Below, piece by piece: positions 2,296-7,182 of a stretch of DNA of 16,531 nt. The position numbers were made by a program, and so were the translations under genes. The stretch lies in UHGV virus genome UHGV-1602447; one strand, 5' to 3'. The notes below the pieces were generated by a model that searched no databases, was not told where the DNA came from, and saw nothing but the letters and a program-made list of their open reading frames with translations. This DNA comes from a virus. Position 1 is the stretch's first letter; every line of letters starts with the position of its first letter.

Positions 2296-2582
2296 GGCTT
2301 AATCTTCCCCTCCTTCAGCAGTATCGCCTGCGTCCTGATCACGCCTTCGAGGTGGTAAAGTCTGGCGTCTTTGTTGTCGAGAATCATTGTGCGTCGGTCG
2401 ATTTCATCGTGACACGCGCTACAAGCCCATGCGCCGATCAGGTCGTCAGGCTTCATTCCCGCTCCGCAAATTCCAGCCATCCTGTAATGTGCCAGAACTG
2501 TAGTTTCAGGATTGCCATTGCATATGCCGTAAATACGTACCTGGCATTCTCTGCCGCGCGCTTCTTTGCGTAGGTTAGCCAT
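2292..2582 (-). CDS. YbcO-like (DUF1364) putative nuclease
   Basis: ORF track 96 aa MANLRKEARGRECQVRIYGICNGNPETTVLAHYR...ACSACHDEIDRR..., closely resembling DLP12 prophage YbcO from memory. Cys/His-rich. Confidence 0.7.
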   Translation of the reverse strand: MANLRKEARGRECQVRIYGICNGNPETTVLAHYRMAGICGAGMKPDDLIGAWACSACHDEIDRRTMILDNKDARLYHLEGVIRTQAILLKEGKIKP

Positions 2583-3304
2583 TAAGCAGCCTCCCCTGTT
2601 ACTTTCAGCATTCCGTTATCGAGCAGCTTTCTGGTCAGCCACTGTTGACCACGACCGGTGATTTTTGTGGTAAACGATATCTGTATTCCGTGATTTGTAT
2701 TGACCGCTGTTTCTTTCACTGTGAAATAGCCGCGATCCATATATTCCTGCATTGGCACATTGCGCCGGGAACCTGAAGCAATAAGGATTTTGTGATCGCG
2801 CATCCACGCAAACAGTTTGTTTGGATCAATTCCAACAACCTTTGCAAAGTTTCCAATCAAAATTCCGCTGGCCTCGCCAACGCGATCGGCAAACTCAACT
2901 TTAGGTGCGGCAATTGCGAGCTGGTTTTCCAGTTGCATTTTCTGCTCAGCAAGATCAGCAGCAAGGCGCAACGCTTCTGGTAGCGTTTTGGGGATATTAA
3001 CCGCAGCTTCTTCAAGCTCTCGCCAACGGTCAACAAGACGAGCGGTGAACTCTGGCGACAACTGGGCAACAACAACAATACTATCTCGCTTACCTTGTTC
3101 GCCTTCGAAGACGTAATGCTCGTACTGAACATTGAACCCTAAGTTATTGATTCTTTCGGAAACCTCAATTTGAGGAAGCCGGATAACACCATTTTTAGCC
3201 AGCGTTTCGATGGTACGTTTCACATTGTCATGACGCTTACCAACCAACTCAGCGATTTCAATGCTTGTCATTTTTATGGCATTGCCATTTATTAACTCAT
3301 TCAT
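2582..3304 (-). CDS. phage antirepressor / regulatory protein (Rha-like N-terminus + KilA-C/ANT C-terminal domain)
   Basis: ORF track 240 aa. N-terminus (MTSIEIAELVGKRHDNVKRTIETL) fits the Rha family; C-terminal half (ADRVGEASGILIGNFAKVVGI...HKILI) fits the KilAC antirepressor domain. Start overlaps ninF stop. Confidence 0.7.
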   Translation of the reverse strand: MNELINGNAIKMTSIEIAELVGKRHDNVKRTIETLAKNGVIRLPQIEVSERINNLGFNVQYEHYVFEGEQGKRDSIVVVAQLSPEFTARLVDRWRELEEAAVNIPKTLPEALRLAADLAEQKMQLENQLAIAAPKVEFADRVGEASGILIGNFAKVVGIDPNKLFAWMRDHKILIASGSRRNVPMQEYMDRGYFTVKETAVNTNHGIQISFTTKITGRGQQWLTRKLLDNGMLKVTGEAA

Positions 3305-3783: not shown

Positions 3784-4655
3784 CATGCAGCTTCCCTCCC
3801 GAAGTCGAAATCAAGCTGCCCTCCAAATATTTCGCATGACTCAGAACAAGAGCCGGTATCGAATCTTTTAGCTCGTACCATGTCCTGATACAGGGCTTGA
3901 TAATCATTTTCTGAATACATTTTCGCGATACCGTCCAGCGACATTCTTCCTCGGTACATAATCTCCTTTGGCGTTTCCCGATGTCCGTCACGCACATGGG
4001 ATCCCGTGATGACCTCATTAAAAACACGCTGCAATCCCTCCTCATCTTTGCAGGCAAGTCCGATTTTTTGCGTTGATTTTTTAATGCAGAATATGCAGTT
4101 ACCGAGATGTTCCGGTATTTGCAAATCGAATGGTTGTTGCTTCCACCATGCGAGGATATCTTCCTTCTCAAAGTCTGACAGTTCAGCAAGATATCTGATT
4201 CCAGGCTTTGGCTTTAGCCGCTTCGGTTCATCAGCTCTGATGCCAATCCACGTGGTGTAATTCCCTCGCCCGAAATGGTCATCACAGTATTTGGTGAAGG
4301 GAACGAGTTTTAATCTGTCAGTGCAGAACGCGCCGCCGACGTATGGAGTGCCATATTTCTTTACCATATCGATAAATGGCTTCAGAACAGGCATTCGCGT
4401 CTGAATATCCTTTGGTTCCCATACCGTATAACCATTTGGCTGTCCAAGCTCCGGGTTGATATCAACCTGCAATACGGTGAGCGGTATATCCCAGAACTTC
4501 ACAACTTCCCTGACAAACCGATATGTCATTGGATGTTCACAACCTGTATCCATGAAAACGTAATGCACGTCTTTACCTGCCCGTCGCTTTTGCTCCATTA
4601 GCCAGAGCAAATATGCTGACGTCCTGCCACCGGAGAAACTAACGACATTTATCAT
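3783..4655 (-). CDS. ninC: NinC (PAPS-reductase-like / 3'-phosphoadenosine 5'-phosphosulfate sulfotransferase fold)
   Basis: ORF track 310 aa. Chosen start is the internal [19 protein letters not shown]... (290 aa, lambda NinC length), whose ATG overlaps the ninB stop (ATGA). SGGxxS P-loop motif of the PAPS reductase family. Confidence 0.85.
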
Positions 4656-5080
4656 GCAGCCCTGTCTCCCCATCTCGCTTTCCACTCCAGAGCCAGTCGC
4701 GCTTCGTCTGACCACTTAACGCCACGCTCTGTACCGAATGCCTGTATAAGCTCTAATAGCTCCGCAAATTCGCTTACACGCATCCTGCTGGTTGACTGGC
4801 CTATTACCACAAAGCCATTCCCGGCAAGGTTAGGAACAACGTCCTGCTGCTTTAATGCTGCGGTAAACACACACTTCCAGCTTTCTGCATCCAGCCAGCG
4901 ACCATGCCATTCAACCTGACGCGAAACGTCACCAAGGCAAGCCCAAAGCTTCCGATTTTGGTCTAAGCTGCGGTTGCGCTGCTTAAACTCGACAATGATG
5001 TCTAAATCGCATGTCCTAAGATACTGAATGGCGTTATATCTTATAGATTCATTAGTAAGGTGATATTTGACACATTTCAT
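4652..5080 (-). CDS. ninB: NinB (Orf recombination mediator), lambda-like body with a non-lambda 27-residue N-terminus
   Basis: ORF track frame 4652-5167. Chosen start MKCVKYHLTNESIRYNAIQYLRTCDLD-IIVEFKQRNRSLDQNRKLWACLGDVSRQVEWHGRW... (142 aa). From IVEF onward it matches lambda NinB; the ATG sits 1 nt after the HNH ORF stop (TAA-A-ATG). Confidence 0.75.
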   Translation of the reverse strand: MKCVKYHLTNESIRYNAIQYLRTCDLDIIVEFKQRNRSLDQNRKLWACLGDVSRQVEWHGRWLDAESWKCVFTAALKQQDVVPNLAGNGFVVIGQSTSRMRVSEFAELLELIQAFGTERGVKWSDEARLALEWKARWGDRAA

Positions 5081-5081
5081 T

Positions 5082-5669
5082 TTAATACCTCGCAAATTCG
5101 CCGAAACATTCATCCGCTTTATTTGCATATACTTTATGAGCTTCCTTTGGGTCATCGTAAAACCCAAGATTAACTTTCCTCTTGTTGATTACGATTTGCG
5201 CCCTCCATTTTCTTGATTTCTTATCCCATGAAACGCCTTTATATCCTGATTTGTTATTTGCCTTTTTGTTTACGTTTTGGATGTTTTGAGATCGAGTTGC
5301 CAATCTAAGGTTTGCTATACGATTGTCATCCCTAACGAGATTTATGTGGTCGATATCACTTTTTGGTAGACTGCCATTCATATAGAGCCACGCCAGCCTG
5401 TGTGCCTTATAAAGTTTTCCATCGACTTTTATTACCCAGTAGCCTTCGCTACTCTTATGCCCTGCGATATCCCCTGCATTCATTCTCTGGCATTTCTTTA
5501 CTTTCCATGTGAATTTCCCTGTTAACTCATCGTAGAGAAGGACTTCTTTTAGTCTCTGCTGAGTTATTTGATTGATTGGTTTTGTTGGGTCTGGAAGGAT
5601 TTGCTGTACTGCGTGAATAGCGTTTTGCTGATGTACTGGAGATCGAATTTCAAAGGTTAGTTTTTTCAT
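5082..5669 (-). CDS. HNH homing endonuclease (HNH_3 + AP2-like DNA-binding domain) fused in frame to the first ~32 codons of lambda-type NinB
   Basis: ORF track 201 aa; start taken at ATG 5669 (RBS GGGGGAGAGGGA). MKKLTFEIRSPVHQQNAIHAVQQILPDPTKPI equals the lambda NinB N-terminus, then ...GYWVIKVDGKLYKAHRLAWLYMNGSLPKSDIDHINLVRDDNRIANLR... (HNH) and YKGVSWDKKSRKWRAQIVINKRKVNLGFYDDPKEA (AP2-like). Confidence 0.75.
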   Translation of the reverse strand: MKKLTFEIRSPVHQQNAIHAVQQILPDPTKPINQITQQRLKEVLLYDELTGKFTWKVKKCQRMNAGDIAGHKSSEGYWVIKVDGKLYKAHRLAWLYMNGSLPKSDIDHINLVRDDNRIANLRLATRSQNIQNVNKKANNKSGYKGVSWDKKSRKWRAQIVINKRKVNLGFYDDPKEAHKVYANKADECFGEFARY

Positions 5670-5685
5670 GACTTCCCTCTCCCCC

Positions 5686-5717
5686 AAATAAAAAGGCCTG
5701 CGATTACCAGCAGGCCT
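5686..5717 (-). terminator. intrinsic terminator between helicase and nin operon (tR2 analogue)
   Basis: Minus strand: AGGCCUGC-(8 nt)-GCAGGCCU GC-rich hairpin followed by UUUUAUUUGGGGG. Located just downstream of the helicase stop, where lambda has tR2. Confidence 0.6.
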
Positions 5718-5745
5718 GTTATTAGCTCAGTGATGTAGATGGTCA

Positions 5746-7182
5746 TCAGAATCCTCCTTTCTTCTTGGACTGCGGTTCCTCTCGTTCACGTCGGCGCATT
5801 TCAGCAGACTGTTGGTCTGTGTCATAAATAGCGCCATTTGCCTGAATGCAATACACCGTGCCGGTATTGCCATGACGATTGAGACGAAGGATTAGTTCGG
5901 TTTCACCAGGTGGAACACTGTCATCAAAAGCGCCTTCACGATGGATCCCAACCCAATAATCGCAATCCTGTTCAATCTGCCCTGTATCTCGTGAGTCACT
6001 TGGTAATGGGCGTTTATTGGTTCGGCTTTCCAGTGCGCGGTTAAGCTGCGTCAGAAGCACAACAACGCAATCAAGCTCTTTGGCAAGGTTCTTCAGTCCT
6101 TTGGTGATCATGCCGTAAGCAAGGTCATTGCGATCGGCCTTCTCAGCGGTCATTAGTGTCAGGTAATCGACCAGAATCATGCCAACACATCCTTTTTCTC
6201 GCTTGATTCGACGGCTTTCGCTGACGATTTGAGCCAGAGATAATCCCGGCGTGTCGTCGATGTAAAGCATGTCGATTTCACTCAAGCGATTAGCTGTTTC
6301 GATCGCCCTGTTGAAGTCACCATCGTAATCACCCTGATAGCCGTCATCAGCGTCATTTGTCGCCGGAAGGTAAAAAATATTCGGGTTAACACCAGACTTC
6401 TGCCCTACCAGTTTTTCCAGTATCTGATCACCTGGCATTTCAAGGCTGAACATCAAAGCGGGCTTTTTCTCATACACTGCGCAATTGATTGCCATCTGGC
6501 TGTATAGCGTCGTTTTCCCCATCTTAGGGCGAGCGCCAATGACAAACAGAGAGCCTTTCACCAGACCTTTCGGTGACAGCATCCTGTCCAGCGATGGGAT
6601 CCCTGTGCTCATTCCCCGTTGTTCGCCTGATGGGTCAAATCGCTTCTCAAGGTCGCTAACCCAGTCTTCCATGACCTCACCAAATGAACGAAGGCCGCGA
6701 CGCGATCCGGTTTTTGCATGGTCTGTCAGTTGCGTGAAAATCGACTGAATAGCTTCGTACTTCTGCGTTGCAGTCATTCCGTTGCGGGAATAGAGCAATT
6801 CCGTCGCTTCAGTCATGCGGTTGATGGCGTAGCGTTCCATTGCGGTTTCACGAACCTGCATTGCATAGGCAACGATGTTTGCTGCGCTTGGCGTGTTCTT
6901 TGCGATCTCAGCGATATAAGCAAAACCGCCAACAGACACAGTTAACGATTTACGCTCCAGTTCATCGAAAAGCGTCAGGCCATCTACTGGCTTTTGCTCC
7001 CGGTGCATTCTGGTTATTTCTTCGAAAAGGATTTTGTGTGGTCGGCTGTAAAATGAATCAGGCTTCAGCATCGCCAGAACTTTCTGGACGCGCTCACTGC
7101 TGTCATCATCCAGAAGCAATCCACCAATCACCGCCTGCTCTGCCTCGATGCTATGGGGCGGCGCATAAAAATTATCGGTCAT
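5746..7182 (-). CDS. replicative DNA helicase, DnaB family (phage-encoded; P22 gp12-like replication module)
   Basis: ORF track 483 aa with Walker A GARPKMGKTT and DnaB-like N-terminal domain (IEAEQAVIGGLL). Start chosen at ATG 7182 (MTDNFYAPP..., RBS GAGGG 7 nt upstream) rather than the upstream GTG. Confidence 0.9.
   Translation of the reverse strand: MTDNFYAPPHSIEAEQAVIGGLLLDDDSSERVQKVLAMLKPDSFYSRPHKILFEEITRMHREQKPVDGLTLFDELERKSLTVSVGGFAYIAEIAKNTPSAANIVAYAMQVRETAMERYAINRMTEATELLYSRNGMTATQKYEAIQSIFTQLTDHAKTGSRRGLRSFGEVMEDWVSDLEKRFDPSGEQRGMSTGIPSLDRMLSPKGLVKGSLFVIGARPKMGKTTLYSQMAINCAVYEKKPALMFSLEMPGDQILEKLVGQKSGVNPNIFYLPATNDADDGYQGDYDGDFNRAIETANRLSEIDMLYIDDTPGLSLAQIVSESRRIKREKGCVGMILVDYLTLMTAEKADRNDLAYGMITKGLKNLAKELDCVVVLLTQLNRALESRTNKRPLPSDSRDTGQIEQDCDYWVGIHREGAFDDSVPPGETELILRLNRHGNTGTVYCIQANGAIYDTDQQSAEMRRREREEPQSKKKGGF

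Follow-up and report, generated by a model that had tools for sequence, protein, structure and literature searches.

How can a nuclease gene lie within the coding sequence of another gene, with neither a start codon of its own nor a splicing element to remove it, and leave that gene complete? The question is raised by the ninB (orf) locus of UHGV virus genome UHGV-1602447, a 16,531-nucleotide (nt) stretch of DNA (hereafter the window, whose numbering is used throughout) representing the early region of a lambdoid prophage. At this locus an open reading frame (ORF) opens with the beginning of lambda NinB, runs on into an HNH nuclease and is followed at once by a second ninB start. The locus is very probably occupied by a free-standing HNH-AP2 homing-endonuclease cassette that inserts at a fixed ninB site of lambdoid phages. 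On our best reading of the sequences, this cassette borrows the translation start of its target and would bring with it a replacement 5' end for the gene that does not contain the uninterrupted target sequence.

The fusion ORF opens with MKKLTFEIRSPVHQQNAIHAVQQILPDPTKPI, which matches lambda NinB residues 1-32 at 31 of 32 positions, the single change being A12V. The initial annotation had recognized this opening without stating that it lies on the minus strand. Derivation of these residues from NinB was confirmed at the protein level by a phmmer match to the lambda NinB structure (PDB 1PC6, E = 2e-14) and at the DNA level by BLASTN, in which window positions 5747-5574, comprising the ren-ninB spacer and ninB codons 1-32, aligned to lambda 40566-40739 with 171/174 identities (98.3%). 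Beyond this leader, Pfam returned an HNH_3 and an AP2 domain, and PHROG 99 ('HNH endonuclease') covered residues 26-194 of the ORF (E = 1e-74). Residues D107-H108, N116, N120 and N129 occupy invariant columns of the nuclease family alignment, and the HNH_3 region aligns to the catalytic segment of I-HmuI, weakly by phmmer (E = 0.31, 19% identity); the top Foldseek match of the AlphaFold2 (AF2) model of the nuclease was I-HmuI (PDB 1U3E, probability 1.00). The AP2 match scored 29.4 bits, under the curated cut-off of 33.3 bits, and the corresponding region of the model superposes on the plant AP2 domains of TEM1 and ERF1 with a root-mean-square deviation of 1.3-1.5 A. From these features we infer that the fusion ORF encodes a predicted HNH (HNH_3 / I-HmuI-like) homing endonuclease with an AP2 DNA-binding domain. 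PMC10448857 (citing Magnani 2004) treats HNH-AP2 proteins as a recognised homing-endonuclease family. A defence-system identity was also considered for the nuclease and rejected, PADLOC having returned only its generic 'homing endonuclease' model (E = 5e-7).

No ATG, GTG or TTG occurs in the fusion frame between codon 1 and Met63, in agreement with the original description of an in-frame run into the HNH_3 and AP2 domains with no internal start. Free-standing relatives of the nuclease are 160-170 amino acids (aa) long and open with M-x-ITQxRLKE at the equivalent of window residue ~35. Because they begin there and carry no NinB leader, the leader is not a normal part of the nuclease family. Residues 35-62 of the fusion ORF include family-conserved positions and, as no start codon precedes Met63, the full nuclease should be translatable only from the ninB start. 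The ninB ribosome-binding site and ATG therefore appear to be the sole usable start for the full nuclease, and the upstream 32 codons are probably a remnant of the recipient gene serving as the nuclease translation start. The fusion could alternatively be apparent only, with the nuclease translated independently from ATC/ATA at codons 32/35 or from Met63 and the leader irrelevant. Such a reading accords with database entries of 161 and 164 aa (P0241, P0242) that begin at codons 32/35, with the division of the ORF by RefSeq (PGAP) into a 5' pseudogene and an 'HNH endonuclease', and with the low AF2 confidence of residues 1-30 (mean predicted local distance difference test (pLDDT) score of 49-67 per 10-residue block, rising to 80 for residues 31-40 and 92-95 for 41-100). 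We consider it highly unlikely, since no stop separates the lambda-type ninB start from the nuclease, so that ribosomes must read through; since initiation at Met63, the first canonical start, would lose the conserved residues 35-62; and since the in-frame fusion is retained in a 66%-identical Cronobacter lineage and in two further contigs, L039 and L061, described below.

Comparison with uninterrupted genes defined the limits of the insert. BLASTN identity to lambda resumed at window 4986-4600 (lambda 40750-41136, 96.4%), and the block between, 4987..5573, is missing both from lambda and from a much closer empty-site relative, a prophage of E. coli M172-1 (L172) that matches window 7300-5574 at 98.4% and 4986-3473 at 98.9%. 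The insertion junction was the same against both, placing the insertion at about codon 32 as first proposed. Lambda and L172 have 10 nt of ninB (GTAGTAACCA) where the cassette has 587 nt; the separation of about 577 bp initially given for the two lambda-like parts is the net gain, and the complete unit, at first bounded at 4999, reaches 4652. Three more substitutions (EFKQ for TIQE) follow right after the block in nearly all cassette loci. Because EFKQ is common to the cassette loci, the foreign DNA probably ends about 9-20 nt further on, in the RNRSLDQN-coding stretch. In ninB this amounts to the replacement of some 10-19 nt in the region of codons 33-38.

An in-frame insertion with an HNH nuclease inside a gene resembles many phage introns and inteins, and would suit a self-splicing element, either a group I/II intron or an intein, that restores lambda-type NinB. 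However, a permissive Rfam scan of positions 4500-5900 (E <= 1) gave no intron family, only a chance CRISPR-repeat match, and no Hint or intein domain was found in the fusion ORF, for which Pfam gave HNH_3 and AP2 only. All 587 nt are coding except one base, a stop and a frame shift (+1) separate nuclease from ninB, and the downstream ninB is complete with its own ATG. Moreover, joining the two flanks would not recreate the native sequence, as the lambda-type gene has lost 10-19 nt. Self-splicing is thus vanishingly improbable, and the initial decision against a group I intron stands.

The single base between the nuclease TAA and the ATG at 5080-5078 is position 5081, as had been noted. The gene opened by this ATG matched the Pfam NinB model at positions 4-131 of 131 (E = 2e-46) and PHROG 72 end to end (residues 1-141), and its AF2 model (pLDDT 83) matched lambda NinB 1PC6 over 141 columns (Foldseek, E = 5e-15). 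With a full-length NinB domain and fold predicted, the downstream ninB is expected to be complete on its own. We therefore rejected a split 'genes in pieces' arrangement: of the split gene originally favoured, the NinB(1-32)-HNH fusion and the N-terminally variant NinB were upheld, the splitting itself was not. The variant N-terminus aligns with other NinB alleles and is 4 residues shorter than that of lambda in the PDPTKP loop. Homology of the two NinB N-termini, claimed from the outset, is supported by the family profile and alignment on which it rests; their pairwise similarity is not significant (local alignment z = 0.7 vs shuffles). The nuclease part has a GC content of 39%, the variant 5' end one of 33% and the ninB body one of 53%. 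A GAGG lies within the last nuclease codons; with stop and start only 1 nt apart, it is consistent with coupled translation or re-initiation at the downstream ninB.

The 30-nt empty-site sequence, allowing <=3 mismatches, had no match anywhere in the window. Among the ninB matches inspected from a 5.8-billion-protein search, none was an uninterrupted ninB with the variant N-terminus. The only matches at >=91% identity over >=94% of the query were four proteins (P0001-P0004), all with the variant N-terminus; P0003 and P0004 sit after a nuclease ORF, whereas the calls for P0001 and P0002 have been extended upstream across the 3' end of the nuclease ORF. The low GC content of the variant 5' end, and a homologous version that follows the Cronobacter-type nuclease described below, indicate that this 5' end belongs to the cassette itself and has diverged along with it, and is more than a donor flank carried along by co-conversion as first supposed. 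As a separate observation, in two Salmonella prophages (L005 and L006, 5001-5595) the post-cassette ninB has an altered, extended C-terminus (..EWKRGLETPHETLLPLRRKQ.., 170 aa), suggestive of a frameshift or of fusion to the gene that follows.

The same endonuclease, for which the initial annotation had proposed a search of other prophages, occupies this site in 18 loci, drawn from prophages of E. coli and Salmonella and from IMG/VR contigs; no cassette was found in phage records. Among 5426 complete E. coli genomes searched with a 1.2-kb query over the region, 2084 matched and 8 of these carried the cassette. The 587-nt block is >=99.3% identical across the 18 loci, and the nuclease ORF is intact in 17. 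In the 17 loci comparable without gaps, there were 7 haplotypes of the cassette block, 13 of the left flank (130 nt) and 15 of the right flank (340 nt). Nucleotide diversity was 0-0.02 inside the block and 0.11-0.15 outside; it drops toward the left junction (0.11, 0.04, 0.004) and climbs within ~30 nt of the right block end. All 18 loci share one exact left junction; right-hand crossovers range from about 20 nt past the block (in L020) to >60 nt. The cassette occurs beside both DnaB-type and primase/AAA-type replication modules, with leaders from different ninB alleles (MKKLTFEIRSPA.., MRKLTFELRSHI.., MRKLTFELRSPI..), the remnant varying by allele with the 13 left-flank haplotypes, and is followed by ninB bodies of lambda type, Salmonella type, Stx type and, in L020, a very different type. 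Presence/absence polymorphism at a fixed site and an element far more uniform than its flanks are characteristic of homing genes, and the uniformity of the cassette across backgrounds points to recent horizontal spread.

These data also bear on whether the nuclease and the variant 5' end form a passive mosaic block, moved by general homologous or illegitimate recombination, with the nuclease inactive or serving another role. Lambdoid nin regions are highly mosaic, uninterrupted ninB alleles show patchwork haplotypes, and the cassette is rare, with one copy broken, all of which would agree with passive movement. Against it stand a single exact left junction in 18 loci, around a block at least 99.3% identical between flanks that are 11-15% divergent, and an intact catalytic motif with far less non-synonymous than synonymous change between Cronobacter and E. 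coli types. Nor would chance mosaicism lead one to expect the recurrence of the architecture in other genes of unrelated phages. We regard passive mosaicism as quite unlikely and continue with the homing cassette. Within the 18 loci, L020:3001-4100 (IMG/VR 2751185961_000005) is of separate interest: its nuclease leader is of the lambda/P22 type, and its variant N-terminus is joined just after the RNRS codons to the very different NinB body (..IRQNARLHAMLSEISKK..), which indicates a crossover within ~20 nt of common sequence.

A diverged form of the locus was found in Cronobacter. A 192-aa Cronobacter protein (P0122 cluster) has 66% aa identity to the window nuclease and carries a NinB leader of Cronobacter type (MRKQTFEIRTPLVQQNAIRTIQQLYPDLGK), joined at the same point. 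In the sole available contig (L007), the nuclease TGA is followed immediately by ATG AAG ACT ATT AGA TAT CAT TTG ATA GAT GAA, encoding MKTIRYHLIDE.., which is homologous to MKCVKYHLTNE.. of the window, and GCGAGG precedes the downstream ATG in both. The two cassettes share about 70% nucleotide identity. This homologous layout implies that the start-less nuclease and the substitute ninB 5' end diverged together. In the nuclease part the proportion of non-synonymous differences (pN) was 0.21 and that of synonymous differences (pS) 0.77, the latter saturated, which indicates purifying selection on the nuclease. No complete Cronobacter-type locus was found in genome-contig scans, in one of which a degenerate pattern was unable to match the window type (extra spacer base), or in a viral pattern scan, and a metagenome scan for it returned distant relatives only.

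To ask whether the arrangement recurs in other genes, we scanned 67 IMG/VR loci with nuclease relatives. Two related contigs, L039:2950-4219 (IMG/VR 3300010370_000666) and L061:749-2012 (3300020036_003597), have an HNH-AP2 ORF whose first ~22 codons are homologous to the beginning of the gene that follows it, which encodes a protein of 237-241 aa that matches Phage Tail Collar weakly. The leader matched the N-terminus of the next gene at z = 15.4 (L039) and 10.8 (L061) vs shuffles, and the nuclease stop overlaps the next ATG (ATGGCTAA / CATGGCTAA). In a Logan contig (SRR28285720, L171:249-2305) a 24-residue copy of a Phage_stabilise N-terminus (MTSVPVAFRSSEGKYRFAGSTKL) lies ahead of an HNH-AP2 nuclease and the complete gene comes after it (z = 19). 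In this nuclease the conserved ITTERL motif is also preceded by an internal Met of its own. No further examples were found in P0166, P0192 or the scorable metagenome loci, an N-terminal extension and a downstream ORF both being present in only 2 of the 17 metagenome loci scanned. Judging from the L039/L061 and L171 cases, the design is uncommon but arose or spread more than once. The balance is even as to whether these loci represent a distinct recurrent phage homing-element design, in which a start-less nuclease is built on the start and first 20-30 codons of its target and accompanied by a substitute 5' end, with examples in ninB (two lineages), tail-collar and phage-stabilisation genes. In such a design the divergent substitute 5' end, presumed to resist cleavage, would be translationally coupled to the nuclease stop, and the element could enter a coding sequence with neither intron nor intein and leave its target gene working.

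We propose the following course of events for the ninB cassette. A terminator-like hairpin lies upstream of ninB, so expression should need N-antiterminated transcription from pR, which would pass the terminator during lytic growth. Ribosomes entering at the ninB ribosome-binding site would make the NinB(1-32)-HNH-AP2 protein, and coupled translation or re-initiation at ATG 5080 would give NinB; equivalent stop-start arrangements are the TGAATG of Cronobacter and the overlap in L039/L061. Where another lambdoid genome with an uninterrupted ninB is present, the nuclease would then nick or cut that allele near ...CCAACCAAACCAATC|GTAGTAACCATTCAGGAACGC, at codons 30-38, and the break would be repaired from the cassette-bearing genome, copying the cassette and some flanking DNA. 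Homology for repair would be provided on the left by the ninB 5' end and upstream spacer, and on the right by the RNRSLDQN-coding stretch onward. The cassette allele is presumably immune, its target being split and its substitute 5' end too different for recognition.

The same activity might serve as a phage-phage weapon, chiefly to the advantage of the carrier, which would cut competing lambdoid phages or prophages in their ninB region (localised marker exclusion), a role compatible with homing. The gene stands in the delayed-early nin operon behind a terminator, from which lytic-only expression is expected, and its target is common, given the proportion of E. coli genomes that matched the query region containing ninB. 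Against this, the sequence holds nothing that separates a weapon from plain homing. In the laboratory ninB is dispensable, so cutting would have to harm the rival through the break itself. We consider a weapon unlikely as the main benefit and retain homing as the explanation.

Seven of the 16 mismatches to L172 right of the junction fall within 65 nt, the other 9 being spread over the next 1449 nt, which fits a short co-converted tract there; to this extent the co-conversion originally suggested was borne out. Several points weigh against the proposed account. The right-flank synonymous haplotype is shared by about a quarter of the lambda-type ninB alleles that have no insertion, and we therefore took it as natural polymorphism and dropped it as specific evidence of co-conversion; the control consisted of 80 IMG/VR loci (L088-L167) from a lambda NinB search, a biased sample in that all are protein-identical to lambda. 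The downstream gene of the Cronobacter type is visible for 12 codons only, because L007 ends 35 nt past the nuclease. The target site is placed by the insertion point alone. Enzymes of the I-HmuI type are nickases, and DNA that contains the intron can be cut by them as well, so immunity of the cassette allele is assumed. The copy in L001 has a premature stop (TGC to TGA at codon 60), and this broken copy and the low frequency of the cassette mean that its spread may be slow or past. Independently of the cassette, the control loci L088-L167, identical to lambda in NinB protein, comprise 38 distinct DNA alleles in which linked synonymous changes in codons ~45-53 appear in many partial combinations, a pattern that shows frequent short-patch recombination inside uninterrupted ninB.

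The nearest parallels are the mORF elements of fungal mitochondria, known from atp6 of Allomyces macrogynus and from atp6, atp9, cox2 and nad3 of Glomus, in which the endonuclease ORF brings a foreign copy of the C-terminus into the gene that it invades, and the native C-terminus remains further downstream (PMC3630166). Like these, the ninB cassette is a free-standing endonuclease ORF in a gene without an intron, with a divergent foreign gene end and the native end left as a remnant. Unlike them, it replaces the N-terminus rather than the C-terminus, as a mirror image; its remnant is reused as the nuclease start; and it is an HNH-AP2 nuclease of a temperate phage, not a LAGLIDADG or GIY-YIG enzyme of a mitochondrion. 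The cassette thus combines an endonuclease with a foreign replacement terminus, but not the C-terminal LAGLIDADG/GIY-YIG form of the fungal elements, and would work like an mORF while standing outside that group. The T4 seg and mob genes, e.g. MobE, are free-standing endonucleases that spread by intronless homing (PMC2790892, PMC2988022). They share with the cassette the lack of intron or intein, presence/absence polymorphism between related phages and spread by break repair with flank co-conversion, but are intergenic with their own starts, whereas the cassette lies inside its target, start-less, with a substitute gene end. In Aeromonas phage Aeh1, as cited in PMC10448857, nrdA is split by mobE into 'genes in pieces'. 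According to that citation, there too a homing endonuclease gene interrupts a coding sequence with no splicing element and the gene still functions, but the nrdA halves cooperate as separate peptides, whereas ninB is complete downstream and the upstream piece is a 32-residue leader.

A one-sentence mention of gene 31 of the Salmonella P22-like phage epsilon34 describes an in-frame fusion of the eaE N-terminus to an HNH protein (PMC2629481); that case involves another gene and another nuclease lineage, and a replacement gene end and population evidence are not described there. With I-HmuI (PDB 1U3E) the window nuclease shares the HNH_3 core, the conserved D-H and N residues and a preceding beta-sheet DNA-binding region, but I-HmuI is intron-encoded and ends in a helix-turn-helix, whereas the window nuclease ends in AP2, the C-terminal domain of the HNH-AP2 family (Magnani 2004, as cited in PMC10448857). 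The 'hidden' HNH insertion of ShiLan in actinophage methylase genes (PMC11855218) is likewise an HNH homing element inside a phage gene, neither intron nor intein and without an obvious independent translation signal. The ShiLan HNH is read out of frame within an insertion that is in frame with the host protein; in contrast, the ninB nuclease continues the reading frame of the host N-terminus, and the host gene begins anew after it. We found no description of the ninB element in the literature.

Sequences of the cassette are public under generic names, often mis-started or split by annotation pipelines. In L001:3132-3719 and L002:3671-4258, RefSeq (PGAP) divides the fusion ORF into a 5' 'HNH endonuclease' pseudogene and a shorter coding sequence, and the 161-aa (115 contigs) and 164-aa (101 contigs) entries of P0241/P0242 start at ATA or ATC read as M. 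The fusion is systematically missed by annotation, and the cassette explains a recurring error in which the nuclease is split or begun at non-canonical codons. The 90%-identity protein cluster to which the fusion ORF belongs (that of P0121, 592 members) also contains unrelated proteins of 68-70 aa (MNTVNGMCSDAPRAKKC..), so its member count is not a count of cassettes. The arrangement appears to be an uncommon but repeated way for a selfish element to enter a gene without breaking it, and would join introns/inteins and intergenic placement as a third route for a homing endonuclease to occupy a gene without destroying it. It may also account for some of the allelic replacement of N-termini in mosaic phage genes. 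As ninB/orf is a well-studied recombination-mediator gene of the lambda family, homing, co-conversion, coupling and the hybrid NinB are directly testable.

Table 1. Features of the ninB locus in the window
Feature	Position	Strand	Description
Fusion ORF	5082..5669	-	195 codons + TAA (5084-5082); NinB(1-32) leader, predicted HNH_3 nuclease, AP2 DNA-binding domain
Probable recipient ninB remnant, codons 1-32	5574..5669	-	lambda ribosome-binding site and ATG kept
Candidate mobile cassette, 587-nt block	4987..5573	-	nuclease codons 33-195, stop, 1 nt, variant ninB 5' end
HNH_3 catalytic domain (predicted), residues 87-129	5283..5411	-	Pfam E = 9e-17
AP2-type DNA-binding domain (predicted), residues 141-181	5127..5249	-	Pfam E = 1e-6 and structural match
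GAGG, Shine-Dalgarno-like	5088..5091	-	inside last nuclease codons (..FARY), 7 nt before ATG 5080
Variant ninB 5' end	4978..5080	-	MKCVKYHLTNESIRYNAIQYLRTCDLDIIVEFKQ; common to all cassette loci; without uninterrupted target sequence
Complete ninB (predicted), 142 aa	4652..5080	-	cassette-borne variant N-terminus joined to lambda-type body; Pfam NinB
Right-hand recombination zone, possible co-conversion tract	4922..4986	-	clustered differences from L172
Terminator-like hairpin and T-run, intrinsic type	5694..5717	-	8-bp stem, 6 GC pairs, TTTTATTT tail

The early-right operon lies on the minus strand of the window. It runs through an ORF in the cro position (no Pfam match), cII, an ORF in the O position, a DnaB-like helicase and the ninB/nuclease feature to a NinC-like phosphoadenosine phosphosulfate reductase, NinE, an Ant/Rha antirepressor, YbcO, RusA, NinH, Q and the holin. 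The O-position ORF has no Pfam match; L002 and L172 have a homologous gene, which carries the annotation 'DNA replication protein'. The hairpin upstream of ninB lies within a spacer 98% identical to the lambda ren-ninB spacer, and we take it to be the equivalent of lambda tR2. On the plus strand are a cI-like repressor, N, gp17, a Rad52-family recombinase and a single-stranded DNA-binding protein.

The antirepressor-type gene, with a Rha N-terminal domain and a KilAC/ANT domain, is located at 2582-3304 (-) between NinE and YbcO in the nin region. Directly downstream of the cI-like repressor is a 300-aa ORF at 9853-10755 (+) with weak matches to ClpP-like SDH-type serine protease and NfeD; in lambda this position is occupied by rexAB, and the ORF could be a lysogen-expressed accessory or exclusion gene. 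In the E. coli E200086 prophage (L001), the nin region has three nuclease insertions, the ninB cassette included. One (L001:5735-6450) interrupts ninF near codon 39 and is a different HNH gene, equipped with its own ATG, downstream of which the native ninF C-terminus remains as a remnant; the other is an HNH gene between ninB and an adenine methyltransferase (L001:4146-4673).

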